The notes beneath the pieces are model-generated. The model did not search any database and was not told the DNA's origin. It saw nothing but the letters and a program-made list of their open reading frames with translations. From a bacterium (lineage in GTDB: Bacteria > Patescibacteriota > Patescibacteriia > UBA9570), in contig JAUYKW010000025.1 of the NCBI GenBank assembly GCA_030698395.1, forward strand, positions 4,179 to 68,178: a DNA stretch of 64,000 bases, written 5' to 3'. Position numbers and translations under genes: made by a program. Shown piece by piece: positions 123 to 30,634 of this stretch (position 1 is the first letter of the stretch; every line of letters begins with the position of its first letter).

Positions 123-197
123 CTTTTATTTTTTAATGTTCACTATATAACCGTAGCAACAACAACCCCTTTGTACTCCCTTCCGGCAAGCAAGTAA

Positions 198-10183: not shown

Positions 10184-10642
10184 ATGTCCAATCGTCACTT
10201 AGCACGCACAATTGCACTTCAAAGCTTGTACGAATGGGATTTCACAGATCAACAACACGTTGCTCTTGAATTAGTAAAGCGTAATCAGGGTGATTTTGCT
10301 CCTGAATTTGATGATCAAAAATTCGCTGAAAATTTGGTAGAAAAAGTTATCGAGAATCTTAGTGCACTAAACGAATATATCGCAAAATACGCTCCAGAAT
10401 GGCCATTAGACCAAATTACAACAGTAGATAGGAATGTATTACGAATCGGCATATATGAACTTATCTTCGATGAAAATATTCCTCCGAAAGTTGCGATTAA
10501 CGAATCAATTGAACTTGCAAAAACTTTTGGTGGGCCATCCAGTGGAAAATTCGTAAACGGTGTGCTTGGTAGCATTTTTAAAGACATCGAAAAAGATATT
10601 GATAACAAAAAATCTAAGAAAGAAAGTGATAAACATGAATAA
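10184..10642 (+). CDS. nusB: transcription antitermination factor NusB
   Basis: [14 protein letters not shown] NusB-family N-terminus; 152 aa. Confidence 0.8.
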
Positions 10643-11345
10643 AGTAGCAGACTATCATAAAGATTTTAGTGCTTTAGAAAAAAAACTTGGAATCAAATTC
10701 AAAAATCTAGACCTTATCACTCAGGCATTTGTTCATCGTTCTTATTTAAACGAAAATAGAAATTTTCCAACCGGACATAACGAACGACTAGAATTTTTAG
10801 GAGATGCAGTTTTAGAACTAGTTGTTACAAAATATCTATTTGATCATTATGATAATCCAGAAGGTGAGCTAACTAATTGGCGAGCTAGTTTAGTTAACTC
10901 CCATATGTTATCAACATTGTCTATTGAATTAGAGGTTGAACAATATCTCTATTTATCTCGAGGTGAACAAAAAGATAGCACTGGAAAAGCTAGGGCTAAA
11001 ATTTTAGCAAATTCATTTGAATCTTTAATTGGTGCTATTTACCAAGAAAATGGCTATGAAGCCTGCGATAAAATTATCACGAATTTATTACTTAGCAAGC
11101 TAGATCATATTCTAGAAAATAAACTTTATTTAGATCCAAAAACATACTTCCAAGAAATTTCTCAAGAAAAGGTATCTATTACTCCTACATATAAAGTAGT
11201 TCATGAAGAAGGCCCTGATCATGATAAACAATTTACAGTTGCTGTATTTCTAGGACAAGAAAAAATAGCAGAAGGCTATGGATCATCAAAACAAGAAGGG
11301 CAGGTGAATGCCGCAACAAAAGCAATTGAAACAAAAGGCTGGTAA
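10635..11345 (+). CDS. rnc: ribonuclease III
   Basis: [15 protein letters not shown] RNase III signature plus a C-terminal dsRBD. Start at MNKVADY overlaps the nusB stop by 8 nt. Confidence 0.9.
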
Positions 11346-14044
11346 TGTATTTGGATAAGATTGTAATTAACGGTTTTAAATCTTTCGCAGAATCAACTGA
11401 GTTCAAATTTAGGCACCCTTTTGTAGCCATCGTAGGACCCAATGGTTCTGGAAAAACAAATGTTGCCGATGCTATGAGATGGGTTATGGGAGAACAGGCT
11501 CTTAAGCTAATTCGCATAAAAAAATCAACAGATGCAATATTTGCTGGATCCACAAACCGTGGTCGTCTAGGAATGGCTCAAGTTGATTTACATCTCAGCA
11601 ATCATGATGGACGCCTAAATATAGATTATCCAGAAGTTGTTATTACTCGACGCATCACCCGAGATGGTGAAACTGAATACTTCATCAACAAAAATAAATC
11701 TCGTTTACAAGACATCCTAATGTTGCTAGCTCAAGCAAACTTCGGCCAAAAAAGTTATGGTGTAATTGGGCAAGGCATGATTACAGATATTCTAAATGCA
11801 AACCCACAAGATAGAAAAGAATTTTTCGATGAAGCAACTGGCGTAAAAGAATTCCAGATGAAACGCGATCAATCAATAAATAAATTAATTCGTACAGAAC
11901 AAAACTTAGTGCGGGTTGAGGATTTATTGAATGAAATAGAACCAAGACTAAATTCTCTAATTCGACAAGTAAAAAAATTAGAAAAACGCAAAGAGGTTGA
12001 AGAAAAATTATCTATCATCCATATTCAGTATTATGGTTCATCTTTAGTAAACATAAATACTCAGCTGAAAGAATTATCAGATAGATTTACAGACGTCCAA
12101 TCTCAAAAAGAAATTACCAAAAATAAATTATCAGTAATCGAAGAAGAAATTGACATCATTGGCAAAGAAGAATCTCGCACTGAATTATATCAACGCATTC
12201 AAAATGAATATAGTGATATTATTGCTCAAAAAAATGAACTACTAAAGCAACAAGCTGTGTTAAAAGGTCGTTTAGAAGTAGAACATGAACGCACTGGAGA
12301 AATTGACTTGCTATGGATGCAGAGAAGAGCAGATGAGATTGTATCGCGGATAGATTCTACAAATACAGAGATTACTACTCTAGAACAATCAATTCAACAT
12401 CAAGAAGGACAACTTGAAAAAGTATACAAATCTCAAACAGAAATTGATGAAAGCTTTAAAGAGCTAGAAGATAAAATTGATGCTGCCCAAAAAGAATTAA
12501 CTAAGATGTCCGAAATATTATCTGTGCCCGAAATTAAACACCGTCTTGATGAATTATTTTCTGATCAAGAACAATTCCTGCGAGATATGCTAAGAACGTC
12601 ATCTTTAGATGAATTTAAGCAAATAAAAGAACAAGCAAAAGTAATTACCACTAAACTAGCTGAATTACTCGATGAATTACATGAGGAACGAGATGACGAA
12701 TTAACCCTCAAACAAAAAGAAATCAATTCAATTCAAGAAAGATTACAAAGCACTACACAACTAAAAGAAAAACTATTTGTTGATAGCACCGAATTAGTAG
12801 TAGCAATAAAGTCAAAACAAGAAAAGATTAGTCTCTTACAACAAAACTCAGCATCACTGACAAAAGAAAAAAATAGTATTACAAATGATATTAAACAAAA
12901 ACAAAATAACGCAACTACAAAAGAAAAAAGCTCAGCTCAATTAAAAGCTATCCAAAAGGAAGTTGCATCATTCGAAAAACAATTATCCGGTATTGAAGAA
13001 AAGCTAGCACTAAAAAAAGCATCACTAGACCAATTTAATCAATCAGAAGAAGTTAAAAAAAGACGATTACTTGAATTACAAACTGATGCTAGAAAAATTC
13101 AAATTGAATTAAACCAAATCACAAATAAAGCTCAGTCCATAGAAATTGAGGTGGTTAAATTGCAGACCAAAAAAGAAGATGTAAAAGAGGAAATCAGCCG
13201 AGAAGTATCAGCAGTCACTCAGCAAAAAATAGAGAAGTGGCAAGAAGTAAGACAAGATCAAGATCAATTACTAATTCAAATTGAACGATATAAACATCAA
13301 TTAGAACTAATTGGTGGTATAGATCCAGATATTGTTGTTGAACATGATAATACAAAAAATAGATTTGAATTTTTAAAAAAACAATCAACTGATCTCCGTA
13401 ATACTATTGATTCTCTAGAAGATATAATTGATGAACTTGATACAACAATAAAAATACAATTCAATAAATCATTCAAAGCCATAGCAACAAGTTTTAATAA
13501 ATATTTCAAATTAATTTTTGAAGGTGGTGAAGCAAAATTAAATATTGTAACTGAATCTGATCTTGAAAAAGAAAAATCGGAAGAAACACCAATCAATCCT
13601 ACTGATATTACCAATCCAGAAGAAACCCAAGAAGACCCAATAATTGAATCACTTGGCAAACGTAAGAAAAAACAACGCGTAATTACCGGCATTGATATAA
13701 TTGCCCAGCCAAAAGATAAAAAACTTCAATCAGTTCACGCACTATCTGGTGGAGAGAAATCCATGACTGCCATCGCATTGATTTGTGCAATCATCGATGC
13801 AAATACACCTCCCTTCGTTGTATTAGATGAAGTTGAAGCTGCCTTAGATGAATCAAATTCAGAAAAATTTTCAACAATCATAAAACATCTTTCGAAAAAA
13901 ACTCAATTCATTATTATTACCCATAATCGAGCAACCATGAATAAGGCAGATGTATTATTTGGCGTCACCATGGCCAAAGATGGCACTAGTCATATTCTTT
14001 CAGTTAAAATGACTGAGGCTGAAGAAATGCTTGATAAAGAATAA
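11345..14044 (+). CDS. smc: SMC-family chromosome segregation ATPase (short, 899 aa; no obvious hinge)
   Basis: N-terminal FKSF..VAIVGPNGSGKTNVADAMRWVMGEQ, long coiled coils, C-terminal LSGGEKSMTAIAL..VLDEVEAALD. Classic rnc-smc linkage. Confidence 0.8.
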   Translation: MYLDKIVINGFKSFAESTEFKFRHPFVAIVGPNGSGKTNVADAMRWVMGEQALKLIRIKKSTDAIFAGSTNRGRLGMAQVDLHLSNHDGRLNIDYPEVVITRRITRDGETEYFINKNKSRLQDILMLLAQANFGQKSYGVIGQGMITDILNANPQDRKEFFDEATGVKEFQMKRDQSINKLIRTEQNLVRVEDLLNEIEPRLNSLIRQVKKLEKRKEVEEKLSIIHIQYYGSSLVNINTQLKELSDRFTDVQSQKEITKNKLSVIEEEIDIIGKEESRTELYQRIQNEYSDIIAQKNELLKQQAVLKGRLEVEHERTGEIDLLWMQRRADEIVSRIDSTNTEITTLEQSIQHQEGQLEKVYKSQTEIDESFKELEDKIDAAQKELTKMSEILSVPEIKHRLDELFSDQEQFLRDMLRTSSLDEFKQIKEQAKVITTKLAELLDELHEERDDELTLKQKEINSIQERLQSTTQLKEKLFVDSTELVVAIKSKQEKISLLQQNSASLTKEKNSITNDIKQKQNNATTKEKSSAQLKAIQKEVASFEKQLSGIEEKLALKKASLDQFNQSEEVKKRRLLELQTDARKIQIELNQITNKAQSIEIEVVKLQTKKEDVKEEISREVSAVTQQKIEKWQEVRQDQDQLLIQIERYKHQLELIGGIDPDIVVEHDNTKNRFEFLKKQSTDLRNTIDSLEDIIDELDTTIKIQFNKSFKAIATSFNKYFKLIFEGGEAKLNIVTESDLEKEKSEETPINPTDITNPEETQEDPIIESLGKRKKKQRVITGIDIIAQPKDKKLQSVHALSGGEKSMTAIALICAIIDANTPPFVVLDEVEAALDESNSEKFSTIIKHLSKKTQFIIITHNRATMNKADVLFGVTMAKDGTSHILSVKMTEAEEMLDKE

Positions 14045-14052
14045 GTAGCAGC

Positions 14053-14850
14053 CTAAACCACGTCAGGCGTAGACTTCTTAGGATCGCTTTTATGCGATTC
14101 TTTTTTATGCGATGGTTTTTGCAACAAAGTATATAACAACATAGTAAATACTGTGGTAAAGCTACTGAAAACCACGCTAATAACCATGCCTAAAGCTACA
14201 AACCCAAAAACATCTGGTAGAGATGTAATAATTAGTAAGGATATTGCACCTACTATCAGCTGAGTTAAAACTAAATAAGAAAAAACTGTCCACCAATTTT
14301 CTCGGACAACTTTCCAACTTTTTTTCATTGCCTGAAGTGGCGTGGCATTTTCCCAAACAAGAATAGGTAATACAAATGCAAACATAATAGAAAATATAAT
14401 TCCCGGAATAAAAAATAAACCATATCCAATCAAAACAATGATATTTGTAATCAGCACAACAACCATTGCTTTGGGATAAAATGGTAAGGCCTCAGACAAC
14501 AAATGTTTAATTGTAGCTTTTTTATTAAAGTAAGCATGTTTCATTGTTATCAAGATAGCCACAGCTGCATATATAATCACTATTTCACCCACTAGCTGAA
14601 TACCTAAATTTAATAAATATGCAGGCTCCATAACTAAAGCAAAGACTTCATTTAAGCTAGATAATTGACTTTTAAATAGTTCTCTTGGTGTTGTCCAATC
14701 AACTAAAAGATAAACTGGGATAGCAACTACTAAATTAGCTAATAATACTACCTCAAAAAGGTTTAAATATTGCCTCCACGCTAGTCGCAGAAGGATAGAA
14801 TAAGTAGGAATTGGCTTCATATAGCTAATAGTATAACTTATTGACAGCAA
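14053..14850 (-). CDS. polytopic membrane protein, function unknown
   Basis: 265-aa hydrophobic ORF; architecture resembles the 487-1482 product. Confidence 0.45.
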   Translation of the reverse strand: MLSISYTISYMKPIPTYSILLRLAWRQYLNLFEVVLLANLVVAIPVYLLVDWTTPRELFKSQLSSLNEVFALVMEPAYLLNLGIQLVGEIVIIYAAVAILITMKHAYFNKKATIKHLLSEALPFYPKAMVVVLITNIIVLIGYGLFFIPGIIFSIMFAFVLPILVWENATPLQAMKKSWKVVRENWWTVFSYLVLTQLIVGAISLLIITSLPDVFGFVALGMVISVVFSSFTTVFTMLLYTLLQKPSHKKESHKSDPKKSTPDVV

Positions 14851-14933
14851 ATAGCATATTGGCTATGATTGCTGAGCTATCGCTAAATACTCAAATATAG
14901 CAACCTAGATTAATCTAAAATAATTGAAAAGCA

Positions 14934-15308
14934 ATGTTAACTATTCGTTTAGCACGTAAAGGTAGAAAAAAGAGACCAACCTACCGTATCGTATTACAAG
15001 AGAGAGAATGGGCACCATCTTCTAAAGTAATTGAAAATCTTGGTCATATGAATCCTCATACAGACCCCTCCACTGTAGTACTTGAAGAAGAAAGAATTAA
15101 ATACTGGATAGATCAAGGCGCTCAAACATCAAGTACTGTTCATAACATACTTGTAACTGCCGGAGTAATTACTGAACCAAAAAGAAGATCTGTTTTTGGT
15201 AAGAAAAAAGGTGGTGAAGAGAATTCAGAAGAAGCTACTAAAGAAAAACCTGCTGAAGAACCTAAAAAAGAGGAAGAAAAGGCCGAAACTGAAGCCACGG
15301 CATCTTAG
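14934..15308 (+). CDS. rpsP: 30S ribosomal protein S16 with acidic/Lys-rich C-terminal extension
   Basis: MLTIRLARKGRKKRPTYRIV N-terminus. Confidence 0.9.
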   Translation: MLTIRLARKGRKKRPTYRIVLQEREWAPSSKVIENLGHMNPHTDPSTVVLEEERIKYWIDQGAQTSSTVHNILVTAGVITEPKRRSVFGKKKGGEENSEEATKEKPAEEPKKEEEKAETEATAS

Positions 15309-15380
15309 AGTATTGACCAAACAAGTGCTCTAATATAAAATTATTAGTACATTGCAAATTAATAAGTTAATGCAACAGAT

Positions 15381-15725
15381 ATGGAAAAAGATCAAGAATT
15401 TGTTGAGTACGTTGTAAAAGCGCTGGTTGATAAACCAGAAGCTGTTACATCAGAGCGAACAGTCGACGAAATGGGTGTGTTAATCACACTTAAAGTTGAT
15501 TCAGCTGATCTCGGACAAGTTATTGGAAGACAAGGGCAAACTGCCAAGTCTATCCGTACACTTCTACGAGTAGTCGGAGCTAAGAATCACGCTCGAGTAA
15601 ACCTCAAGATCTACGAACCAGAAAAAATGGGTGGTCAACCAAGAGGTGGATCATCAACACCAACTACTTCTGCACCTGCAGCAGAAGAAGAAGTTGACAT
15701 CAGCGCAGTTGATCTCGACTTATAA
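15381..15725 (+). CDS. KH-domain RNA-binding protein (YlqC/UPF0109-like)
   Basis: VIGRQGQTAKSIRTLL KH motif; conserved position after rpsP. Confidence 0.8.
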   Translation: MEKDQEFVEYVVKALVDKPEAVTSERTVDEMGVLITLKVDSADLGQVIGRQGQTAKSIRTLLRVVGAKNHARVNLKIYEPEKMGGQPRGGSSTPTTSAPAAEEEVDISAVDLDL

Positions 15726-15750
15726 ATCTAGATAAAAAAAGAAAAAGCCC

Positions 15751-15783
15751 TGCTTAATAAAGTAGGGTTTTTTTGATTAAACT
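15751..15783 (+). terminator. intrinsic terminator after the rpsP-KH pair
   Basis: gccctgctt..agtagggt hairpin followed by TTTTTTT. Confidence 0.6.
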
Positions 15784-15928
15784 TTATTATTGCATATACA
15801 CATACTATTTGGCTAAAATTAGCCATTTTTTTTGTATATAATCAACTTTTACCATTGACAAAATAGCCTTTTTCCGATAGTCTGTTCGGTCGGTGTTTTA
15901 AATGCGCCGTTTTTATTTTCCAAAAATA

Positions 15929-16537
15929 ATGAAAAAAATCATATTACCAATATACAGATTAGCTCTGTTCTCTCGCTTAATGCCAGCCAAGCTACCCCGT
16001 ATTGATATCTATAAATTATTTACACAATTATTAATTGGCATCCTTCTAATTGGTAGTATGAGTCCAGCTTTATACGCTCAAGAAACCACACCTCTTAATA
16101 CATCAGAGCCAACAACTAAAACTTCTGGATCATATCTATCACAAAATGGATATGTAGATGGACGAATTACAAATATACAGTTAGGAACTCGATATTGGGT
16201 ATCATCTACTCATCGCCTTAGTCGTGGATTTACGAGCGGTCATAAAGCACTTGATGTAGATGGTGAATTTCATGATCCTATTTATGCTATGACAGATGGT
16301 GAAGTTATTGAAATCACTACTAGTGGACCTTATGGTAATAAGATAGTAATTGCTCACCCCGGAAATACAACTACCCTCTATGCTCATCTTCAAACTATTG
16401 ATGTTGTAAATGATCAAACTATATCTGGTGGGCAATTCATTGGCACCATGGGCAGCACTGGTCGATCCACTGGTTCACACTTGCACTTTGAAGTTCGTGA
16501 TAACGGTCAACTAATTGATCCAGCAACTTTGTTTTAA
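15929..16537 (+). CDS. M23 family metallopeptidase (in the position usually occupied by rimM)
   Basis: HKALDV...D, YAHL, GSHLHFEV M23 motifs. N-terminal signal/TM. The ORF could start at 15902. Confidence 0.85.
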   Translation: MKKIILPIYRLALFSRLMPAKLPRIDIYKLFTQLLIGILLIGSMSPALYAQETTPLNTSEPTTKTSGSYLSQNGYVDGRITNIQLGTRYWVSSTHRLSRGFTSGHKALDVDGEFHDPIYAMTDGEVIEITTSGPYGNKIVIAHPGNTTTLYAHLQTIDVVNDQTISGGQFIGTMGSTGRSTGSHLHFEVRDNGQLIDPATLF

Positions 16538-16600
16538 TATAATAAATATAGGAACATAGTGTGTTGCATCCCTATATTTTTGTTTGACATCAATTATAAT

Positions 16601-16640
16601 ACGTAGAGACAGGTCGCGACCTGTCTCTACGTATTTTTTT
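16601..16640 (+). terminator. perfect 32-nt palindrome acgtagagacagGTCGCGACctgtctctacgt + T-run
   Basis: Seen directly in the sequence; same GTCGCGAC-core family as 9262. Confidence 0.75.
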
Positions 16641-16682
16641 AATCATTGACATTGTCACAACACTTGTGCCAATCTAATCAAT

Positions 16683-17348
16683 ATGAGATTTGATATATTA
16701 ACAATTTTTCCAAATATACTAGACTCCTATATTAAAGAGTCCATCCTTAAAATTGCGCAAGCAAAAGAAAAGATAAAAATTAATACATACGACATTCGAG
16801 AATTTACCAAAGATAAACATAAAAAAATTGACGACACTCCTTATGGTGGAGGACCCGGAATGGTGATGATGGTACAGCCAATTTATGATTGTCTGAAAAG
16901 TATTCCTCGCATGGAAAGATCTCGCATTATTATGTTAGATCCCGCTGGCCCAGAATACACTCAAAAAACAGCTGCTTCCTATAGCAAAGTATTCGACCAA
17001 ATAATTCTAATCTGTGGGCGTTATGAAGGTTTTGATGATCGTGTTCACAAACTAGTAGATGAACGATTATCTATTGGTAAATACATTCTTAGTGGTGGCG
17101 AACTACCAGCTCTAATTATCGTAGAATCTGTCACCAGATTACTGCCCGGAGTTCTAGGCGATGCTGAATCAATAGTTGAAGAAACATACTCGGAAAATCT
17201 TGATTACGTAGAATATCCACAATATACTCGTCCTGCAACATTTAAAACAGATGGGGGCAAGGAATGGAACGTACCCAATGTCTTACAATCAGGTGATCAT
17301 GGAAAAATTGATAAATGGCGCGAAGAAAATCATAGAAAAAATGATTAA
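16683..17348 (+). CDS. trmD: tRNA (guanine37-N1)-methyltransferase
   Basis: MRFDILTIFP, GGGPGMVM, ILICGRYEGFDDR, SGGELPA motifs. Confidence 0.92.
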   Translation: MRFDILTIFPNILDSYIKESILKIAQAKEKIKINTYDIREFTKDKHKKIDDTPYGGGPGMVMMVQPIYDCLKSIPRMERSRIIMLDPAGPEYTQKTAASYSKVFDQIILICGRYEGFDDRVHKLVDERLSIGKYILSGGELPALIIVESVTRLLPGVLGDAESIVEETYSENLDYVEYPQYTRPATFKTDGGKEWNVPNVLQSGDHGKIDKWREENHRKND

Positions 17349-17366
17349 AATTTGTGTAAATATATA

Positions 17367-17400
17367 ATAGTAGGGTCATGCCCTGGTATGACCCTACTAT
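17367..17400. terminator. bidirectional hairpin terminator (tagtagggtcat..atgaccctacta) between convergent genes
   Basis: 12-bp stem; lies between the trmD stop (17348) and the minus-strand gene end (17411). Confidence 0.6.
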
Positions 17401-17410
17401 TTATCGAATA

Positions 17411-18583
17411 TTAAATTCCTAATTGTCTCTTCTTAGCGGCAACGGCTTGTTCTAATATTCCTAAAGTTAATCTATCACCTACATTCTGTACCCGCCGGGC
17501 AGGATGAAAAAATTGTTGCAAATCATCTGCTGTCATGTGATAACGGTCGAACCATTCTGGATTTTTCGCCAATATATTTATTAACGTTTCCTGATAAGTA
17601 TGAATCTGCTTCGGAATAATGATTGTTTTTCCATGAATATTTACCGACCTCTTATGCTGTAGCCCTTTTCCTGCGCGACCGATTTTTTTTATCTCTGGAT
17701 GATACTGAATCGCCCAACAAGTTTCTCCAGCTTTATACGCCACCACTTCATTGGTTAAACGATCTCTGGCTAATATTTGAATGTTTTTTGCCGGCCGATC
17801 TTTAATTAAATCTGCACCGTATATACGATAATGATTAAAAGACTCCACTGCAAAAGCTGGCGCTAGCTCGGAAAAAACCTCATCTCGTTTTCCTAAATCT
17901 GTAAGATCTACCACCTGAGTACCTACATGAAACATTCCTTCTTGCGGAGGTGGCACATGCTGACCCCGTTTAATGCCTATACACAAAACCTGATCAGCGA
18001 TAACTTGATAACTCATACAAACAGCTAGAACATATATCTCTTGCTGTAATACCCTACTCATAAATTGGGCAATCGGCCTATAAAACGGTTCATCAGATCT
18101 TCCTTCCCCACCACTCATGATAATTAAAACCTTCTTATCCAGATCTGAGTTCATTAACTTCTGATCATCTGCTGTCATTACACCATTGTTTGATATATAT
18201 ACTCGTGGCCATGGATAATCTTTCCAATTTTGTTTCGATCCAGACAAGCCAATTACCTCTACAAAATTATCTTTTCTAATCTTAGGATGAATTGATTTTG
18301 TTAAAGCTTCACTCGTTCGTAAGGATCTACCATAAATTCTAATCTCACCTCCAGTAGATTTTTGCTTTAATCTGATTTCTCGTAAATCATCTAATATTTT
18401 TTGAACGCGTTTTAAATCTGCTTCATGTTCTGCGTCGTCTGCTTTATTACAAATAGATTTAAAATCATCAACCGTAAGATAAAGATGTTTATCTCTACCA
18501 TATTCACTAAATACTGCTGGAAATTTTTCTTGATATTGAGTTGCCATAAATAAATATGTTGTTGGACCCTTTCTGGCCATCAA
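17411..18583 (-). CDS. class I glutamine amidotransferase-like domain protein with uncharacterised N- and C-terminal extensions
   Basis: Central region has a Cys (VLAVCMSYQ), His and QYHPE triad arrangement as in GATase1. About 140 aa at the N-terminus and 90 aa at the C-terminus have no recognisable similarity. Confidence 0.5.
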   Translation of the reverse strand: MMARKGPTTYLFMATQYQEKFPAVFSEYGRDKHLYLTVDDFKSICNKADDAEHEADLKRVQKILDDLREIRLKQKSTGGEIRIYGRSLRTSEALTKSIHPKIRKDNFVEVIGLSGSKQNWKDYPWPRVYISNNGVMTADDQKLMNSDLDKKVLIIMSGGEGRSDEPFYRPIAQFMSRVLQQEIYVLAVCMSYQVIADQVLCIGIKRGQHVPPPQEGMFHVGTQVVDLTDLGKRDEVFSELAPAFAVESFNHYRIYGADLIKDRPAKNIQILARDRLTNEVVAYKAGETCWAIQYHPEIKKIGRAGKGLQHKRSVNIHGKTIIIPKQIHTYQETLINILAKNPEWFDRYHMTADDLQQFFHPARRVQNVGDRLTLGILEQAVAAKKRQLGI

Positions 18584-18782
18584 TCACCTCGTCAAAATCA
18601 CTCTGAAATGAATGTTATTCTTTTTTCTCCCAGTTTCATTGAAACAAAAGTAATTCGAAAGTTATGTTAGCAATATATTTTATATATGACAAACAAAATA
18701 AACCCTATATTTATTGATGATTTATTAATTTTTACCAACATCTTACTTGTGGACAGCTTGTGTACCGACAAAAACCCCTTCC

Positions 18783-18811
18783 TTGACACATATATGAGCA
18801 TTCTGTAGAAT
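18783..18811 (+). promoter_or_regulatory. sigma70-type rRNA promoter (TTGACA-17nt-TAGAAT)
   Basis: Consensus -35 and -10 hexamers with a 17-nt spacer, about 290 nt upstream of the 16S start. Confidence 0.6.
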
Positions 18812-19107
18812 ATGAAAGCTCAAATATTGGGAAAAATTGACAATCTAAACCCCAAAAAAACACTGAGATCGACATCGTTGCTGATGTAAAGGAGTCGGTC
18901 TCAGGATTTTTATTTCGCAAGATTGAAATTGCATCCCTGTGAACTTTTACAACTGAATCGTGATAAGGATTCACCACGGCTCTATGGTTCAATTGAAGGA
19001 ACTATCAGAGTCCGTAATCCAACAATTCTTCTAACAAAAAAAATCCGGATAGTTAAACACTATCCAAAACACAACCAGCTCCCGATGCTACTTTGTAGCA
19101 AAGGGAT

Positions 19108-20597
<1,490 letters not shown>

Positions 20598-23110: not shown

Positions 23111-23187
23111 GGGTGTGTAGCTCAGGTGGTTAGAGCGCAGTCCTGATAAGACTGAGGTCCCTGGTTCGAGTCCAGGCATACCCACCA
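23111..23187 (+). tRNA. tRNA-Ile (anticodon GAU), CCA encoded
   Basis: Cloverleaf with anticodon loop CTGATAA. Confidence 0.9.
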
Positions 23188-23190
23188 GAA

Positions 23191-23265
23191 GCCGAGGTAG
23201 CTCAGTGGTAGAGCAGTGGACTGAAAATCCTCGTGTCGGGAGTTCAATTCTCCCCCTCGGCACCA
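23191..23265 (+). tRNA. tRNA-Phe (anticodon GAA), CCA encoded
   Basis: Cloverleaf with anticodon loop CTGAAAA; one U·U mismatch in the anticodon stem. Confidence 0.85.
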
Positions 23266-23274
23266 GCAAAAATA

Positions 23275-23426
23275 AAAACAAAAGAGAAATACAATTAAAG
23301 CCACTATCGGGGATTGGCGCAGTTTCCGCCAAAGGCGGATCAGCCTATGGCTGAGGCTAGAACCAATGTCTGAATAAAAACAAAAGAGAAATACAATTCA
23401 AGCCACTATCGGGGATTGGCGCAGTT
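23275..23426 (+). repeat. ~50-bp direct repeat (35 nt upstream flank + first 17 nt of tRNA-Pro) flanking a 51-bp insert that begins with the twin-hairpin element in inverted orientation
   Basis: The copies at 23275-23324 and 23376-23426 differ by 1 nt. The insert tccgccaaaggcggatcagcctatggctgagg sits exactly after 'gcgcagtt' of the truncated tRNA-Pro copy. Confidence 0.85.
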
Positions 23427-23483
23427 GGCTAGCGCGCGCCGTTTGGGACGGTGAGGCCCCGGGTTCGAGTCCCGGATCCCCGA
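23410..23483 (+). tRNA. tRNA-Pro (anticodon UGG)
   Basis: Acceptor CGGGGAT/ATCCCCG, anticodon loop TTTGGGA, T-loop TTCGAGT. Confidence 0.85.
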
Positions 23484-25117
23484 CCCTTTAGGAAAGCAGC
23501 TGATTTCTTATGGTCAAGCAAAATATTAAACGGTTCTTTGGCCTGAAAATCCAATACTTTTTTGTTTTTAATAGTAAAGTTCAAGAACATATTTTGGAGT
23601 ATTGTATCTAATAGCTTCATATCTCTAGTTTGAGCAATAATATCAGGCATTTTTTGAAAAAGTTCGAGAAACTCCTTTTGAGAAAAAATAAAACTTTTGG
23701 AATCATTCAAAATATTATTAATTGCATCTAGTCTAATTTCTAGCTCCTCAATTTTTTGAAGAGTAAGTTTATAATCAAGTTTAAAAGCTAGCTTTACTTT
23801 TTCATCTGTTTCATTTAAAAGTAATTGTTTTACTTGGTCTAAACTTTTTCTTTTGATATTCAATTTTTGAACTACGCTAGATTTTTCACTTGTTAACTCC
23901 TGTGCCTTAGCCTTGATTACAGTATTCATCTGATTCAAGTAAATTTTATAATTATGCTTAGTTGCCAGTTTATTTTTCCTAATAAGCTGAATAACAAAAT
24001 CAACAATCACTTTTGCTCTTATAGACTTATTATGAAAATTACATTTCTTGTTTTCACACCTGTAATAATAATATCCTTTCTTAGAGCCATTCTTTAAGTA
24101 TTTATAGGTAATACCTGAAGAAAATGGAAAATTACACACACCACACACAACTCTGCCGCGCAATAAATCTGCGCTTGTATATTTTTTTGACCTAAGTTGT
24201 GATGTAACTTTAAAACCTTTAGTTAGATCACTAATTTTATTGATCCTTAAAAAATCGATAACTGAAACGGCAGGGATAAAATCACATTTATCAGTTAGAT
24301 CAACAATACTATCTGCACCATATATTAAAACTCCCGTATAAAAGGGATCTCTCAATATTTCTGATAAACGTGATTTATTCATTTCATATAACTTACCAAG
24401 ATGTTGGTAACTGTTACTATTAATATAAAGAATGATGTCATTTAATGTTTTGCCATTCAATTTCATTTGAAAGGCTTGTTTGATTAGTACGAAATTATTT
24501 CCATTTGGATGATGAAATTGGGCAGCATCTTTATAATATCCATGCTTAGCCGTATTAATATATTTACCTTCGGCAATACTTCTTTTATTACCACGTTTTA
24601 CATTGTCACTTAATTGATCTGAATATTGTTTGGACAATACAAACGCCATTCCTAATAACATCTTCCCAGAGGCCGTATTTTCGAAGCTAAAGCTCTTAAA
24701 CTTCAAATCACGAATAACTCCCTTATCAAGTAAATCAATCAGCTCACCAGCCTCTTTCATATTGCGTGCTAATCTATCGGGATGCCAGGCAATAATTGCA
24801 TCGTATCTGCCCGCTTTGATGCGATCTACCATCTCTCTGAACTGAGGCCGTATATCCGGATCCTTGGCTGATTCAGACTCTCTATAAACCTTTACAACAT
24901 TTAAGCCCAGCTGCTGAGATAATTCTTCACATTCTGCGACTTGATCTGCCAACGACCGAGCCTGACGCTCTTCTCCTTCAGTAGATTTACGAACATATAA
25001 AATATATTTCAACAAGTCTGCCTCCTGCTGTGGTTCAATTAACATTCTATACAATAAATCGGTAAATTCTTGTGGGGTGCTTATTGAAGCACTTAAGTTG
25101 GATTGTTTATTGCTCAT
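23429..25117 (-). CDS. large serine recombinase (resolvase domain + recombinase domain + zinc ribbon); 3' end overlaps tRNA-Pro
   Basis: YILYVRKSTEGEERQARSLADQ catalytic-Ser motif, DRLARN, C-terminal CGVCNFPF...YYYRCENKKC; 562 aa. Confidence 0.85.
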   Translation of the reverse strand: MSNKQSNLSASISTPQEFTDLLYRMLIEPQQEADLLKYILYVRKSTEGEERQARSLADQVAECEELSQQLGLNVVKVYRESESAKDPDIRPQFREMVDRIKAGRYDAIIAWHPDRLARNMKEAGELIDLLDKGVIRDLKFKSFSFENTASGKMLLGMAFVLSKQYSDQLSDNVKRGNKRSIAEGKYINTAKHGYYKDAAQFHHPNGNNFVLIKQAFQMKLNGKTLNDIILYINSNSYQHLGKLYEMNKSRLSEILRDPFYTGVLIYGADSIVDLTDKCDFIPAVSVIDFLRINKISDLTKGFKVTSQLRSKKYTSADLLRGRVVCGVCNFPFSSGITYKYLKNGSKKGYYYYRCENKKCNFHNKSIRAKVIVDFVIQLIRKNKLATKHNYKIYLNQMNTVIKAKAQELTSEKSSVVQKLNIKRKSLDQVKQLLLNETDEKVKLAFKLDYKLTLQKIEELEIRLDAINNILNDSKSFIFSQKEFLELFQKMPDIIAQTRDMKLLDTILQNMFLNFTIKNKKVLDFQAKEPFNILLDHKKSAAFLKGRGSGTRTRGLTVPNGAR

Positions 25118-25457
25118 AATGCTTATTTATATCAAATTTTACTTTATATTAAAAATAAAGCTAACTAATTTTTTAAGCATACTCGTATATCATCTATTGT
25201 ATATATACAAAGCATCCTAGATAATTTTCAACTAAAACACACAGTATGAACACTAAATAATACACGAATCACATAAAATGCACTATATAATGCCAACACA
25301 GTATCAATTATCCTTATTGACCCATTGATAGCACTTAGCTACTGCCTAATACCACAATACCTACATAATCAGATGATCATCATTTAGTTCTCTATAACCC
25401 TAGTAACTCAACAAGGAAAAAGTAGCCACACAACACACACCATAGCGCCGATTTTTT

Positions 25458-26288
25458 CTAAAATCCCAGTTGAATTTCCTCGGTTTTTGAACCGAAAAGT
25501 TCTAAATCTGTTGCCTCAAAAGCTAAATTTTTTGCATCCTTAGGGACTTCATATATCGTAACAAAAGTATATGTTATGCCACTGTTAAGATTTGAAAATA
25601 TGAGTTCCTTACCCTCAGGAATCCATTCATATACATCACTAGGTGAAGTATATTGACGACCAGCATCATCTAATAGGTTTGGATCAGATATTGATTTGGT
25701 TGAGCTAGAGTTATGAGTTACCTCATATTCAACCTTAACATATTTACCCGTAGTAGTTTTACTACTTGCAATTGAAGCATACTTTGAATCTCGAGCTAGC
25801 AAGGTCTCACCTAAATCTTGGGCAGATAGTAGTTTCCACGTAACATCTTTTACTACTACTTCTTCACCAATCGCATAAGTCTTTTCTGCAATCGATTCAG
25901 GTTGCACTTCTTTTTCTTCTTTATCATTCGTGTCATCAACTATTTCCTCAGTTTGTTTAGTTTCAATTTTTGCTTTATTTTCAGTACGGTTTGAATCTTG
26001 TTCATCAGGTACATTACTAGTAAATACAGTTACTATAAATCCGAGAAAAAATAAACACACAAACACAACCACACGAAGGGCGCGACTTAAATGTATATTC
26101 ATTTTTTTACTCAAAAAATTGTACGTTGGTGGCAAAATAAACACCGACGCAATAAACGTAATCAAGGCACCTGTAGGTGCGCTCATTAACAAAAATATAA
26201 GTGAAAGAAATAAAGTAAATATCGCAACAACCCATGCCAGGATTGTTTTAACAGTGATAGTTCGTTTAGGTGTGGATGTATCTGTCAT
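25458..26288 (-). CDS. membrane protein with a DUF4352-like extracellular domain
   Basis: 3 N-terminal TM helices, an acidic linker, and a beta-rich C-terminal domain (EEVVVKDVTWKLLSAQDLG...). Confidence 0.5.
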   Translation of the reverse strand: MTDTSTPKRTITVKTILAWVVAIFTLFLSLIFLLMSAPTGALITFIASVFILPPTYNFLSKKMNIHLSRALRVVVFVCLFFLGFIVTVFTSNVPDEQDSNRTENKAKIETKQTEEIVDDTNDKEEKEVQPESIAEKTYAIGEEVVVKDVTWKLLSAQDLGETLLARDSKYASIASSKTTTGKYVKVEYEVTHNSSSTKSISDPNLLDDAGRQYTSPSDVYEWIPEGKELIFSNLNSGITYTFVTIYEVPKDAKNLAFEATDLELFGSKTEEIQLGF

Positions 26289-26317
26289 ATATGTTATAAA
26301 TACTTAATAAAAAAAGG

Positions 26318-26447
26318 GACAACCCTACTGGTTGTCTAGACCCAACCGGACAGATTATGCCCTGATTGTTTTAAGTAGGATTGCCCGTTTAAAAGCACAA
26401 TCCTACCCAAGTATGTTGGGCATTATAGTTCCGGTTGTAGTCTAGAC
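26318..26447. repeat. ~130-bp composite inverted-repeat structure (30-nt arms GTCTAGAC..AACCGGA..ATTATGCCC around a gtaggattg..caatcctac hairpin)
   Basis: Left arm 26331-26362, right arm 26418-26447 (26/30 complementary), central 9-bp stem hairpin 26375-26406. Confidence 0.7.
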
Positions 26448-26600
26448 TTCCTAATTATCCACTATTAAACGAAAATCGTCAAAATTGCTGTGTGATATTC
26501 TAAAATAGGCACGTACATCTGTTACTTTGCGTATAAAAACAAGCAGACCTACCCCTACATGAATTAGAGCTAGTTGAAGCTGATAAGGCCTAATAGTAAT

Positions 26601-26735
26601 TACTTATCCAATGTAACTATTTCTCCGTCGGAGGTTCGAACCTGACCATCATCAAGTTCAGTATCCTCAATGTTTTCGGATTCTTTTAAAGCATTAGCTA
26701 AGTCGGCAATGTTTTCTTCACCTTCATATATCATA
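26601..26735 (-). CDS. possible small acidic protein (44 aa)
   Basis: ATG-initiated ORF in otherwise non-coding AT-rich DNA. Below the ORF-track threshold; codon-level evidence only. Confidence 0.2.
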
Positions 26736-26895
26736 GATTGCTATTATATTTTGATTAAAAAACAATTTCAAGCTCTTTAGTATCGGAATTATTGCCCAAT
26801 AAGATATAAATATCCTTTATCCATTGGTCTAAATATACTTTTTCTGCTATAAATAGATCACTTAGTTCAAGTAAAGTTGGTTCTCCCCGACAAAT

Positions 26896-27783
26896 ATGAA
26901 ATCAAGATTTACAGCCTGCAAATGTATAGGCAATACACCCCTAATTAAAATTAGCGATAAATTATACGCTAAATTAGAAACGCCAAACCCTAGTGGAAGT
27001 ATTAAAGATCGAATGGCTCTTTACATTCTTGATCGTGCGGAAGAAAAAGGCGAAATCCAACCCGGAGCCACAATTGTAGAAGCTACCAGCGGTAATACTG
27101 GCATTGCATTTTCTATGTTAGCAGCTGAACGAAAATATAGAATGATTGTAGTAATGCCTTCCAACATGAGTACAGAACGAAAACAAATGATTAAAGCATT
27201 TGGTGCAGAAATTATAGAAGTTGGTCCTGGTGATTTTGCAGGTGCTGTAGAAAAAAGAGATGTCCTGGTAAAAGAACTTAATGCCTTTTGCCCGAACCAA
27301 TTTGCAAATTTAGATAATATTGAATGTCATTATAAAACAACTGGGCAAGAAATTATAAATCAAATTCCAGATGATCTTGAAATATCTGCTGTAGTTGCTG
27401 GCACTGGAACTGGTGGAACTTTAATGGGACTTAGCCAAGCCTTATTAGAAAAATTCCCAAACTGCAAAACTGTAGCAGTTGAACCTACCGAATCTGCCGT
27501 AATGAGTGGCGGTGAACCTGGCGAACATTTTATTCAAGGAATCGGAGATGGTTTTATTCCAGATTTAGTCGATATGAAAAAAGTTGATGAAGTAGTCACG
27601 GTAAGTAGTGAAGAATCACTTCAGCGCATGAAAGAGCTCACCAAGGAACAAGCTTTATTAGTTGGTATCAGCTCTGGCGCTAATGTAGCTGCAGCAGAGA
27701 AATATATCAAAAACTACAATCCCAATGGTATTGTAGTTACTGTTCTAGCAGACAGACAAGAACGCTATCTCAGTATGCTTTAA
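26896..27783 (+). CDS. cysK: cysteine synthase / O-acetylserine sulfhydrylase (PLP-dependent)
   Basis: NTPLIKI, SGSIKDRMALYIL (PLP-lysine), TSGNTGIAFSMLAA motifs. Confidence 0.85.
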   Translation: MKSRFTACKCIGNTPLIKISDKLYAKLETPNPSGSIKDRMALYILDRAEEKGEIQPGATIVEATSGNTGIAFSMLAAERKYRMIVVMPSNMSTERKQMIKAFGAEIIEVGPGDFAGAVEKRDVLVKELNAFCPNQFANLDNIECHYKTTGQEIINQIPDDLEISAVVAGTGTGGTLMGLSQALLEKFPNCKTVAVEPTESAVMSGGEPGEHFIQGIGDGFIPDLVDMKKVDEVVTVSSEESLQRMKELTKEQALLVGISSGANVAAAEKYIKNYNPNGIVVTVLADRQERYLSML

Positions 27784-27784
27784 G

Positions 27785-29698
27785 CTATGATTTAGCTATT
27801 GGTAGCTCTATCCAAAAAGTACTTCCTTTTCCTTCTTTGGAAACAAAACCAAACTTGCCATCATGTTTTTCAATAATAGCCTTGGCAATATATAAACTAA
27901 TACCCACTCCGTTTGGATGCATCAGTTGTGCATTTGATGCTCGGTAAAATCTAGAAAAAATATATTCTTGATCTATATTAGGTATGCCAATTCCTTCATC
28001 TTTAATTTCTATTCTTATTATCTTATTTTTTTCTAATATTTTTACAACAACCTTACTATGAATTTTTGAATATAGTAAAGCATTATCGATAATTATTTCC
28101 AGTGTACTCCTAATATATTTACTATCTATAGATAAAAGTATTGGTTTTTTTATTAAATTACTAATACTAATTTTTATATCTCGTAATTCTAAATTAGTCT
28201 GCAGTGCAGCAACTACGGAATTAACCAACTCAAGTGGAGAACTTAATGATTTATCTAATGTCAAAGTATTACGATCAATATCTAGAGTAGTATTCATATT
28301 ATCAATTAAGTGCAAAATCGACCTCTCTCTATCTAAAGCATGTTGCACTAATACTTTCTGACCCTTTTCTAACTCTCTAAAGTCACCGCTTAATAACATT
28401 TCTAAACTTAATCCAATCTCAGTTAATGGTGTACGTGTAGTATGTGTAATGGCCGTGATAAAACGCGACTTCAATTCATCTAAGTGTTTTATATTTTCCC
28501 CAGCTTTTTTATTTTCTGTAATATCACTAGAAAGGAATAAAATATATTTTACTTTTCCTTGTTCATCCATAATCGGAGCTAGCGAACTAAAACAATACTC
28601 TCCAGTTGAGGTGCCAGGCAGATGTCTAAGCTCCAATGAAGTAGTTTTTCCCTGAAGTGCATCTTTAAAAGCTACGTCAATTTTTTCATTTGTTTCCTCG
28701 TCAATACAGACTCGGTAATCCCATGCCAATGCTTCTTCGTCAGTTTTATCTGCTAAGTAATGTTCCTCTCTACCGTGCTGATTAATTGATATCATATTAA
28801 CTTCAGGATCAAATATTATAATACATAACGGTGCTAGCTCAATTAAAATTCTATATTTTTCTTCACTTGCTTTTAAATCCTTAGTTTTATCCTGTATCAA
28901 TCTTTCCAAATTATTATAGTAATAATCTAAATCGTGAGACATAATATTAATCGACTCTGTCAAATCTCCTATTTCGTCATTAGAAGCAACACGCAACTTA
29001 GTGTTAAAATTACCCTTAGCAATTGCTTTCACGCTCTTGGTTAATTTTATCAATGGTTGAGTAATTGAATTTATATAAATAAGTCCAATTAGTGTTATTA
29101 AAATCGTTATCAAAACTGATGTTATCAAAATAATAATTTTGATTCTTTCCGATCTCGCTTCTATATCCTCCTGTAAAAGTAAGATTTGTTCGGTAACTAC
29201 ATTAAGTGTTGAACTTATCTCTGATTGATAAATGCTAATTTCATTTATTAAAATATTAATTTCTTCTTGTGAACTACTACCATGAGCTGTCGTGTTGTCA
29301 ATACTTTTAGCATCCGAAGAATTTCTTAAATAAATTAGTCTATCAGAAAACGACTTTGATTGTTTTATATTTACACTAATTATTTTTAATAAATAAAAAC
29401 TAACGACATTATGATTACTTAATAATGCAAAATTCGTATCCATTTGTGATGATAGCCGTGCTATTTCATCTTCAATATTTGCAGCATTACCGGCATCATA
29501 GTTATAAATTAATTCATCAATTAATCGTTTGTAGGAATAACTATCATTTTCTAGTTGCTGAGCAATGAATAAGACATGTTCAGCATTAGCTTTAGATTCA
29601 AAATTCTTTTGCAATTGATCTAATGTAACAATATACAGAATTGACATTATAAAAATTCCGAACAAAAAAACAAACGAAATTTTTACCGACAATCTCAT
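27785..29698 (-). CDS. membrane sensor histidine kinase (extracellular sensor, HAMP, PAS-like, HisKA, HATPase_c)
   Basis: H-box LKSRFITAITHTTRTPLTEI. C-terminal N/G1/G2 boxes (GIGIPN, GVGISLYIAKAIIE). Confidence 0.85.
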   Translation of the reverse strand: MRLSVKISFVFLFGIFIMSILYIVTLDQLQKNFESKANAEHVLFIAQQLENDSYSYKRLIDELIYNYDAGNAANIEDEIARLSSQMDTNFALLSNHNVVSFYLLKIISVNIKQSKSFSDRLIYLRNSSDAKSIDNTTAHGSSSQEEINILINEISIYQSEISSTLNVVTEQILLLQEDIEARSERIKIIILITSVLITILITLIGLIYINSITQPLIKLTKSVKAIAKGNFNTKLRVASNDEIGDLTESINIMSHDLDYYYNNLERLIQDKTKDLKASEEKYRILIELAPLCIIIFDPEVNMISINQHGREEHYLADKTDEEALAWDYRVCIDEETNEKIDVAFKDALQGKTTSLELRHLPGTSTGEYCFSSLAPIMDEQGKVKYILFLSSDITENKKAGENIKHLDELKSRFITAITHTTRTPLTEIGLSLEMLLSGDFRELEKGQKVLVQHALDRERSILHLIDNMNTTLDIDRNTLTLDKSLSSPLELVNSVVAALQTNLELRDIKISISNLIKKPILLSIDSKYIRSTLEIIIDNALLYSKIHSKVVVKILEKNKIIRIEIKDEGIGIPNIDQEYIFSRFYRASNAQLMHPNGVGISLYIAKAIIEKHDGKFGFVSKEGKGSTFWIELPIAKS

Positions 29699-29782
29699 AT
29701 CCTAGTAACTACTATTATCATACTTACTCTATTCACCTCTACTGATTTCATACTTAATTTTAAAATTTCCTTCCTTAATTAA

Positions 29783-30634
29783 TTATAATACTGGCACCAT
29801 GTAATTGTTAATTAATTTCTCAGATAATGTCTCACTAAAAATATAATCTATATACTTTTGAACATGCTCTTTATTTATATTCTTATTATATAGAATCCCG
29901 TACTCTCTAATCATGACGTATGAACCATCCTCAACAGAACTCACTGACGGTACTATACCATCAATAGCTAATGGTACTATAGTAAGGTCATTCATCTTTA
30001 TGTCACCAAATGAAGCTTGACCAATTGAATTTCTAGTTTCAAGAATTGCATCTAACATTAGAGATGCCGTGGCAATTTCAATTGCATCAGTTCTAATAAT
30101 ACTTTCTCCTAAAATGTACTTTCTTAAAAGAATTTTGCTTGATTCGGTCTCACTACGATCCAATAGTATAATTATGCCATCGTCTCCTCCCACTTGATTC
30201 CAATTAGTGATTTCACCCGTAAATATTTTTTTTACTTGATCACTTGTTAAACCTCTTACATTCACGTCCGGATGAACTGCTAATACCATTGCGTCTTTAG
30301 CGAATGATCTTTCCTGAACATTAGGGTATGATAATTTCTCTTCATCGGTCATTTTCCTTGCTGCTGTTCCTAAATCTAATGAACCATCATTTACTCCTTT
30401 AACATCATCAATAGTTCCAGCTCCACCTAAGAACAGTAATGAAATATCTTCAAAAGGTTGGGTACCTCCAATTTTTTCCAATATAGACATACCGGACCCA
30501 GATCCAGATATTATGATATTTTTTTTCTGATCAACATCCTCAGTACTAAGAGTAATTATTAAATATAGTGTCCAACCAACAATCACAATTAATATTAAAA
30601 TAACTAGCGCTAATAAATTTTTATTTGGTCTCAT
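29783..30634 (-). CDS. PstS-like periplasmic phosphate/anion-binding domain protein (membrane anchored)
   Basis: N-terminal TM. IIISGSGSG...LTSDQVKKIFTGEITNWNQVGG pattern resembles the PBP/PstS family. Confidence 0.6.
   Translation of the reverse strand: MRPNKNLLALVILILIVIVGWTLYLIITLSTEDVDQKKNIIISGSGSGMSILEKIGGTQPFEDISLLFLGGAGTIDDVKGVNDGSLDLGTAARKMTDEEKLSYPNVQERSFAKDAMVLAVHPDVNVRGLTSDQVKKIFTGEITNWNQVGGDDGIIILLDRSETESSKILLRKYILGESIIRTDAIEIATASLMLDAILETRNSIGQASFGDIKMNDLTIVPLAIDGIVPSVSSVEDGSYVMIREYGILYNKNINKEHVQKYIDYIFSETLSEKLINNYMVPVL

Follow-up and report, generated by a model that had tools for sequence, protein, structure and literature searches.

A putative serine-integrase element at the 3' end of tRNA-Pro in a Patescibacteriota bacterium, with its attachment site inside the recombinase gene

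We analyzed a 64-kb stretch of contig JAUYKW010000025.1 (assembly GCA_030698395.1, Patescibacteriota), hereafter the window, in which the gene of a large serine recombinase (LSR) runs into a tRNA-Pro gene, and asked what kind of element lies there. A cluster of tRNA-Ile, tRNA-Phe and tRNA-Pro(TGG) genes occupies 23111-23486 of the plus strand (ARAGORN, Rfam). Between tRNA-Pro and cysK, all genes are on the minus strand: the LSR gene, a membrane protein gene, an acidic open reading frame (ORF) of 44 amino acids (aa) and an orphaned LSR tail (Table 1). The original prediction, made from the sequence, had placed an element with an LSR, a membrane protein and an inverted repeat at tRNA-Pro and up to cysK. 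Our 8-nt repeats, far-arm geometry, restored reading frame and the corresponding site of a relative (L082; loci are cited by L numbers) all agree with it, and its span of 23410-26900 was almost exact when compared with the 23485-26891 found here.

By every sequence criterion, the enzyme is an LSR. Its Pfam matches lie above the cut-offs for Resolvase (PF00239, E=2.2e-24, 86.7 bits, cut-off 23.3), Recombinase (PF07508, E=7e-7, 29.9 bits, cut-off 21.1) and Zn_ribbon_recom (PF13408, E=9e-9, 36 bits, cut-off 25.3). Residues R43, K44 and S45, of which R43 and S45 are catalytic, and the zinc-ribbon residues C325, C328, C354 and C359 were invariant in an alignment of 38 homologs. The only PDB sequence match was the TP901-1 catalytic domain (E=2e-4). 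The best NCBIfam matches were XisF and CcrA/B models (E 1e-20 to 1e-14; 53-74 bits versus cut-offs of 375-900 bits), and the IS607 model gave 29 bits versus a cut-off of 110. No tyrosine recombinase ORF was present within 23.4-26.9 kb. The last 18 codons of the LSR gene and its stop (58 nt, 23429-23486) are the antisense of tRNA-Pro nt ~20-77, the TAG stop being the complement of CTA in the D loop, which bears out the predicted overlap of about 18 codons. The ORF has no stop codon ahead of the tRNA, contrary to the option, raised with that prediction, of an ORF-calling artefact with the true stop before the tRNA. The overlap, which had been read as an att-site overlap, is thus real, but it does not appear to be an element-borne half-tRNA copy: the evidence favours a tRNA body that belongs to the host, into which the LSR frame continues across attL.

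The left end of the putative element is formed by the last 8 nt of tRNA-Pro, TCCCCGAC, and a second copy lies just before cysK. We found three copies of TCCCCGAC in the window compared with 0.47 expected on both strands, and none of 100 shuffles gave three. The repeat is short, yet of the length expected of a serine integrase, and the crossover would probably lie inside this 8-bp core, a place deduced from half-site geometry. No long second copy of the 3' part of tRNA-Pro was found in the 64 kb, even at ~25% mismatch; the earlier failure to see a second copy therefore holds for a long one, but the 8-nt copy had been missed. The element boundary was set at 26891 on the basis of the core repeat and of three features described below: a heptamer at +22, an LSR tail that is in frame and a conserved acidic ORF. 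Thus, we consider that 23485-26891 is an integrated element of 3,407 bp with the 3' end of tRNA-Pro as its target (probability about 0.8). The signature of Islander-type islands is present in minimal form (intact tRNA, 8-nt displaced copy and adjacent integrase gene), except that the enzyme is a serine recombinase and not a tyrosine-family integrase. The GC content of the element (33.2%) is close to that of its flanks (33-34.6%; window 35.8%), and about 80% of it is ORF, with structured RNA also present, so that its earlier description as AT-rich and gene-poor does not stand.

The geometry of the two arms provides further support. The T-loop heptamer GTTCGAG is near-universal in tRNA genes, 17 nt from the CCA-equivalent end. 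On the recombinase strand, the tRNA arm shows CTCGAAC at 17 nt, and the far arm shows CTTGAAC 12 nt past the far core, which is 22 nt from the CCA-equivalent end. The same placement, +17 in the tRNA arm and +22 in the far arm, was found in L084, L085 and L011. A scan for far arms, defined by at least 6 nt of identity to the tRNA end and a [CT]T[CT]NA[AG]C heptamer at +21 to +23, revealed 24 matches upstream of LSRs in 465 kb, the window among them, compared with 3 in 522 kb downstream and 2 in 465 kb of the opposite strand; the implied element sizes were 2.6-9 kb. A simpler far-arm motif test gave 6 matches versus 0 in the control. In the LI integrase, the motif read by the zinc-ribbon domain (ZD) is shifted 5 bp inward in attB relative to attP (Rutherford et al., PMC3783163). 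The +17/+22 offset equals this 5-bp attB/attP shift, in one arm only, and we infer that the zinc-ribbon domain of the window LSR reads the T-loop heptamer. Several far-arm-like sites were observed upstream of one and the same LSR (at 3890, 4482 and 6157 nt in L011; at 540 and 9493 nt in L052), suggesting accumulation of elements, or of what is left of them, at a single tRNA.

A second line of evidence comes from the LSR gene itself. Joining 23485 to 26883, as a circle would, adds 42 in-frame codons and yields an LSR of 589 aa. The same joining of ends in L011, L084 and L085 extends the LSR by 38-40 codons with a common QNLLKLF...IIY. The rebuilt tail of the window aligns over G..E.TLLEL with two free-form LSRs that have native tails, P0099 (594 aa, GG.EGTLLELY...) and P0064 (577 aa, GG...TTLELF...), as well as with the rebuilt tails of L084 and L011. 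In addition, the contigs of P0099 and P0064 look circular. L211 and L212 come from two samples and are circular permutations of a single ~4.6-kb sequence; this points to a free circle, with a tandem repeat as the alternative. L214 has a terminal overlap of 30 nt, and these circular relatives measure 4.6-4.9 kb. No tRNA gene was found on L211, L212 or L214, and the free circles encode the long LSR form. In the circles, the LSR gene is followed at once by an acidic ORF of 41-46 aa ending in DGEI(I/V)TL, and the window homolog takes the matching place once the element is circularised. These acidic ORFs share an invariant D-G-E-I-x-T-L, and the ORF is called as a gene on a Logan contig too; from its position and conservation, it is a candidate accessory or directionality factor. 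All recognised domains of the LSR are intact after the split, and the truncated enzyme may therefore stay active.

Table 1. Positions of the features at the tRNA-Pro locus (window coordinates)
Feature	Position	Strand	Basis or remark
Resident tRNA-Pro(TGG), putative target and left arm of attB	23410..23486 (start 23409/10)	+	ARAGORN and Rfam
LSR gene, integrated state, 562 aa	23429..25117	-	Pfam domains; element-encoded part 23485-25117
T-loop heptamer GTTCGAG of tRNA-Pro	23463-23469	+	coordinates checked
Putative attL core TCCCCGAC (last acceptor-stem bases, discriminator and 1 nt)	23477..23484	+	repeats identically at 26884-26891
Noncoding spacer from LSR start to cargo gene; presumed LSR promoter	25118..25457	-	no ORF of at least 25 aa
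Membrane protein, 276 aa, N-terminal transmembrane (TM) helices, weak DUF4352-like C-terminal domain	25458..26288	-	
Candidate RNA leader (promoter-like site, hairpin and terminator)	26310..26482	-	
Acidic ORF, 44 aa, ending DGEIVTLDK	26600..26734	-	aligns with a 46-aa ORF (L211) and a 41-aa ORF (L214)
Orphaned last 42 LSR codons, EPTLLELSDLF...ELEIVF	26758..26883, stop 26755-26757	-	frame reconstruction
Pseudo-T-loop heptamer GTTCAAG of the putative attP arm, inside the orphaned LSR tail	26865-26871	+	
Putative attR core TCCCCGAC	26884..26891	+	4 nt upstream of cysK ATG (26896)

To place the window among related loci, we analyzed the homologs of the LSR. More than 1,500 were found at 42-52% identity, nearly all of them from Patescibacteria where named, and many end in peptides that are antisense readings of tRNA (GxRTRTxDL, GIEPP and GLEPT). 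A full-text literature search found no description of this group, which is apparently a large and undescribed clade of LSRs, mostly of Patescibacteria. Eighty genomic loci were fetched, and 71 loci were evaluable from these, two viral-contig loci and the window. An antisense tRNA gene lies at the end of the LSR ORF in 59 of the 71, and the ORF overlaps the tRNA in 57. Thirteen isotypes adjoin LSRs (Pro, Leu, Lys, Ser, Met, Gly, Gln, Asp, Ala, Glu, His, Val and Ile). The distance from a conserved C-terminal xPF motif to the tRNA 3' end is 29-35 nt (mode 32) in most locatable loci and 41 nt in the window, and the overlaps of ORF and tRNA cluster at 22 and 58 nt in a single reading frame. Such a fixed-offset junction at the tRNA 3' end does not fit a serine transposase (IS607, Tn4451 TnpX), for which many loose targets would be expected. 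At the tRNA-Lys loci, the 3' strand of the acceptor stem varies by genome and pairs with the 5' strand of its own genome, and in L033 non-tRNA DNA comes straight after TGGTGA, the antisense of the tRNA 3' TCACCA; because of these two observations, the junction was placed at the very 3' terminus of the tRNA. The other end was delimited in L084 and L085, the two relatives from the viral collection IMG/VR: a 2.7-kb block common to both opens precisely at TGGTGCGG(G), which is antisense to the final 8-9 nt of tRNA-Gly, and extends to this tRNA, so that an analogous core TGGTGCGG(G) is present at both ends.

These comparisons also bear on the possibility that the LSR is a resident, domesticated chromosomal gene, its tRNA overlap being a fixed arrangement or an ORF-calling artefact, and that no mobile element exists. 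Such a gene would be in keeping with a far end marked by just an 8-nt repeat, a composition equal to that of the flanks and a family very widespread in Patescibacteria. However, the absence of a stop before the tRNA, the 13 isotypes at a fixed offset, the circular relatives without tRNA, the lack of the LSR at the syntenic tRNA-Pro of L082 and the near-identical LSR blocks in non-syntenic contexts make it very improbable. The last of these refers to tRNA-Lys copies in Saccharibacteria that are 90-93% identical over a common block of only ~2 kb (the LSR and 0.4-0.6 kb) on contigs that are otherwise non-syntenic, which is support for mobility.

Several other features of the LSR loci were recorded. 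The LSR of the viral-collection relatives was considered as a phage integrase and rejected, since the adjacent prophage brings a tyrosine integrase of its own and lies across the tRNA from the LSR. In L084, a prophage-like region (10619-20406; tyrosine integrase, endolysin and tail protein) lies 5' of tRNA-Gly, and the LSR element is on the 3' side. D-arm-like repeats 6-8 kb upstream in L009, L011 and L053, tried as att sites, were in fact different tRNA genes. A distant LSR subgroup (29-30% identity; L062, L070, L072, L073, L075 and L079) adjoins tRNA-Ser, Gln or Ala and is flanked by perfect 24-28-nt inverted repeats, one spanning the tRNA 3' end and the other 1.6-1.7 kb off, just upstream of the LSR; it looks like an insertion sequence (IS)-like or invertible unit carrying the LSR only. 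In L029 (1945-2104), the LSR is followed by a 29-nt fragment of a tRNA-Lys 3' end whose acceptor strand fits the tRNA of another host (L037 type), and the real tRNA-Lys lies 54 nt beyond the fragment, after its terminator. Both L029 and L031 (11630-11745) have pseudo-5' copies of tRNA-Lys ~95 nt upstream, with a 37-42-nt insert in the D loop.

We compared the site with that of the nearest available relative, L082 (GCA_024277435.1). The order 16S-fn3-PMT2-tRNA-Ile-Phe-Pro is kept, with a tRNA-Pro ~97% identical, and so is the other side, VTT-317aa-abhydrolase-tRNA-Gly(TCC). After tRNA-Pro, L082 has a terminator and two unrelated genes but no recombinase, which is the opposite of a recombinase conserved at this position in all relatives, the situation named in the original prediction as contrary to its reading. 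In the empty site, only 4 nt would separate the core from the cysK ATG, and this ATG would directly adjoin the 3' end of tRNA-Pro. The synteny kept on both sides, with 1.6 kb of unrelated genes in place of the segment between, could also mean that the mobile unit is the whole 7.4-kb segment 23487-30857, from the LSR through cysK, a histidine kinase and a PstS-like protein. We regard this larger unit as unlikely. The end at 26891 is set by four features (core repeat, +22 heptamer, LSR tail and acidic ORF); the 9.5 kb scanned past the LSR start (to ~34,600) contained no tRNA-Pro-like core accompanied by a heptamer, and no tRNA fragment was found elsewhere. Moreover, the cysK, PhoR-like and PstS-like genes look like host genes, and unrelated rearrangements are to be expected between genomes with 44% aa identity. 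The L082 tRNA-Pro terminator was also aligned to the window as a trace of a displaced B' arm; the alignment was no better than those of shuffles, and this candidate was dropped. The flanking genes in the window (26896-30634) are cysK, a gene for a PhoR/WalK-like histidine kinase and one for a PstS-family protein, the rest of the 7.4-kb segment absent from L082. L082 itself carries a 90-aa ORF between tRNA-Ile and tRNA-Phe and, at ~9440-9530 (minus strand), a ~14-nt direct repeat of the tRNA-Phe 3' end (gatcctcgccctcg) ~75 nt downstream of tRNA-Phe, which may be the scar of another tRNA-targeting element.

The cargo of the 3.4-kb element consists of the membrane protein gene and the structured region before it. 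The original prediction had called the protein DUF4352-like; its match to PF11611 covers 114 of 122 profile positions but stays below threshold (E=0.032; 15 bits versus 25.9), and PADLOC gave no match for it. The inverted repeat, predicted as a 130-bp structure at 26318-26447, proved to be real, as an imperfect 117-nt hairpin at 26334-26450 with fold z-scores of -6.8 (plus strand) and -8.1 (minus strand), and none of 200 shuffles folded as well. On the minus strand, it is preceded by a promoter-like TTGACG-17-GATAAT (26482-26454; score 10/12), and an intrinsic terminator (GACAACC...GGTTGTC and a T run; 26318-26336) ends ~22 nt before the membrane-protein ATG. The L084 and L085 elements contain a homologous structure with the same GTCTAGAC outer stem, a terminator with one compensatory pair (GACAGCC/GGCTGTC), a -10 box before it and a 56-aa TM ORF directly after it, all inside the delimited element. 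Rfam gave nothing at gathering score for the hairpin (best potC, 17 bits versus 44, E=5.6), and apart from those in the window, L084 and L085, no further copy of the structure came up in a strict pattern search. From these sequence features, the inverted repeat is most likely not an att site but a cis-acting RNA leader, a candidate conditional terminator, of a small membrane-protein module.

The cargo is relevant to another possibility, an IS-like unit of ~2 kb with the LSR only, which would end within 25118-25457 and leave the membrane protein, hairpin and small ORF as host DNA. It would be consistent with the tRNA-Lys and tRNA-Met subgroups, which share just the LSR and 150-570 nt upstream. 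However, 25118-25457 contains neither a copy of the tRNA-Pro end nor a heptamer arm, the hairpin and TM-ORF module lies inside the delimited L084 and L085 elements, and the LSR tail and acidic ORF (26600-26883) are contiguous with the LSR in the circular relatives, so we find an LSR-only unit quite improbable. The spacer 25118-25457 showed no homology in other LSR loci. The cargo of the window was not family-wide: neither the membrane protein nor the small ORF had a tblastn match in the LSR loci. In the circular relatives, the cargo includes a PADLOC PDC-S42 candidate (7e-93, full length), an Ltp-like lipoprotein and an AriA/OLD-like ATPase (L211 68-982 and 1572-2144; L214 118-1821), which suggests that such elements ferry small defence or exclusion genes.

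On the other hand, several observations weigh against the 3.4-kb element as delimited here. The 8-nt repeat is weak by itself, with 0.47 copies expected and a third TCCCCGAC at 59697. The second half-sites (P' in the LSR 3' end and B' before cysK) showed no clear dyad partner of the heptamer. The tRNA-Lys subgroup showed no far arm under the +22 rule, and its member L033 is joined to non-tRNA DNA. Conservation of the TLLEL tail might result from the DNA motif CTTGAAC and not from protein function. Finally, L082 is distant, with only 44% aa identity in the gene next to the site; it has no cysK after its tRNA-Pro, and all 7.4 kb up to 30857 differ between the two genomes, so that the boundary is not fixed by this relative.

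If the element is as proposed, its life cycle would start from a small circle with attP within the 3' end of the LSR gene. The LSR would recombine attP with an attB formed by the last ~25 bp of the tRNA gene and the DNA just downstream. Serine integrases make a 2-bp staggered cut at the central dinucleotide, and are unidirectional unless a recombination directionality factor is present. Crossover would occur within the 8 bp TCCCCGAC common to attP and the tRNA-Pro 3' end, by which the tRNA would be kept intact. Integration would split the LSR gene, its first 547 codons remaining by the tRNA and running into antisense tRNA to the D-loop TAG, and its last 42 codons being left 3.4 kb off, beside cysK. 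The offset between the tRNA heptamer GTTCGAG at 17 nt and its attP mimic GTTCAAG at 22 nt would tell attB from attP. The predicted junctions are ...ttcctaaagg GTCGGGGA gaaccaacttta... for attP and ...gtcccgga TCCCCGAC aaatatgaaatc... for attB, and the predicted sites are tagatcacttaGTTCAAGtaaagttggttc TCCCCGAC cctttaggaaagcagctgatttc (attP) and ggccccggGTTCGAGtcccgga TCCCCGAC aaatatgaaatcaagattt (attB). A broader and more doubtful idea, which we put forward tentatively, is that the clade consists of natural tRNA-reading serine integrases with a built-in state switch: the zinc ribbon would read the T loop, small changes of the core would retarget the enzyme to any tRNA, and integration would trade a ~40-aa tail for a tRNA-encoded one which, possibly with the 44-aa protein, would set integration, excision or lock-in. 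Should this hold, the clade would provide the first case of a self-splitting integrase gene in bacteria, and also in the serine family. Alteration of the enzyme's own C-terminus by integration is a testable idea for the control of direction.

We also compared the element with known systems. The phiC31, Bxb1, A118/LI and TP901-1 integrases have the same Resolvase, Recombinase and zinc-ribbon architecture and short att sites with few bp of identity, and LI integrase shares the 5-bp shift of one arm's recognition motif between attB and attP. In contrast with these phage enzymes, to which its identity is only 22-26%, the window LSR appears to target a tRNA 3' end and to have attP in the integrase ORF, and its carriers are 2.6-9-kb elements without phage genes. 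The integrases of SSV1, pTN3 and pT26-2 have the attachment site in their own gene, which integration partitions, and use tRNA targets (PMC8371274); self-disrupting recombinases were considered exclusive to archaea in that review (PMC8371274). The same arrangement was found here, attP lying within the integrase ORF so that integration would partition the gene. However, SSV1-type enzymes are archaeal tyrosine recombinases, whereas the window enzyme is a bacterial serine recombinase with homologs from metagenome-assembled genomes of Patescibacteria, and it would lose only the last ~40 codons. Tycheposons and tRNA-associated islands are similar in being small cargo elements beside tRNA genes and in forming arrays by repeated use of a tRNA (compare the three far-arm-like sites of L011). 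Only a minority of tycheposon-like elements have an LSR, 910 of 937 using tyrosine recombinases and leaving partial tRNAs of ~40 nt, whereas the repeat here is 6-11 nt and the hosts are Patescibacteria. SCCmec Ccr and XisF-type excisases are likewise LSRs, and their site of action is the 3' end of a conserved housekeeping gene, but the window LSR is far under the cut-offs of these families, and the targets and element types differ.

What appears to be new here are serine-integrase integrative elements that combine targeting of the tRNA 3' end with an attP located within the gene of the integrase itself. For insertion of large DNA, serine integrases are the principal tools, and their natural targets are mostly protein-coding genes. 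LSRs that abut the 3' ends of tRNAs of 13 isotypes in most of the 71 loci, apparently via the T loop, run counter to the older view of serine integrases as enzymes that do not specify tRNA genes, and the clade offers many enzyme/att pairs with conserved and ubiquitous landing sites. Mobile elements of Patescibacteria have been little studied, and those of 2.6-9 kb look like a common vehicle for small cargo, also as free circles.

Another repeat at the locus deserves separate consideration. A 54-nt direct repeat upstream of tRNA-Pro (23271-23324 and 23373-23426) is by far the longest near the tRNA (98% identity) and ends 2 nt before the position of the LSR stop, and could thus be taken for the att sites of the recombinase. 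However, the same structure occurs before tRNA-Val and twice before tRNA-Gly(GCC), with no LSR by tRNA-Gly(GCC) within the window and with the 3' side of tRNA-Val off the window; it also lies on the 5' side of the tRNA, whereas the junction of the family is at the extreme 3' end, and it encloses only 48 nt. This role for the repeat is extremely improbable. A D-loop crossover with the 54-nt repeat (tRNA nt 1-18 and 36 nt upstream) as attL/attR was likewise dropped, since the pseudo-tRNA and palindrome recur at tRNA-Val and tRNA-Gly and the junction is at the 3' end. The repeat and the pseudo-5' copies are a separate feature, unaccounted for by the recombinase model.

The pseudo-5' copies were found before Pro-TGG (23271-23372), twice in tandem before Gly-GCC (56190-56355) and before Val-GAC (~123-246, minus strand). 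Each consists of tRNA nt 1-17 ending in CAGTT, a 30-nt double hairpin (TCMGCC-N3-GGCKGA twice), GGNTA from the D loop and an unrelated spacer; that of tRNA-Pro adds 36 nt of upstream DNA, giving the 54-nt repeat with a period of 102. They occur only at tRNAs with the D loop CAGTTGG, and the 30-nt hairpin is present nowhere else in the 64 kb. A Logan contig (SRR13727534) has its left end inside the 54-nt repeat, an assembly break probably caused by that repeat and thus carrying no information on population heterogeneity. The 30-nt motif, often a perfect palindrome with a GGATCC centre, was detected in at least 120 metagenome contigs (loci L089-L208). Among the matches listed, most were not near tRNAs, and the motif often capped a longer hairpin and had a T run ahead of it and an A run behind. 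In L168 (3282), a pseudo-tRNA-Val, the motif and a real tRNA-Val repeat the pattern, and in L187 (56) a tRNA-like sequence carries the motif in its D loop. Possible readings of the motif are a miniature mobile palindrome and a protein-binding site.

Finally, the 16S rRNA gene of the window (19109-20596) has no 23S rRNA gene after it, the genes that come next being protein-coding ones and a tRNA cluster, and a tRNA-Ile with the anticodon TAT was found at 254-327.

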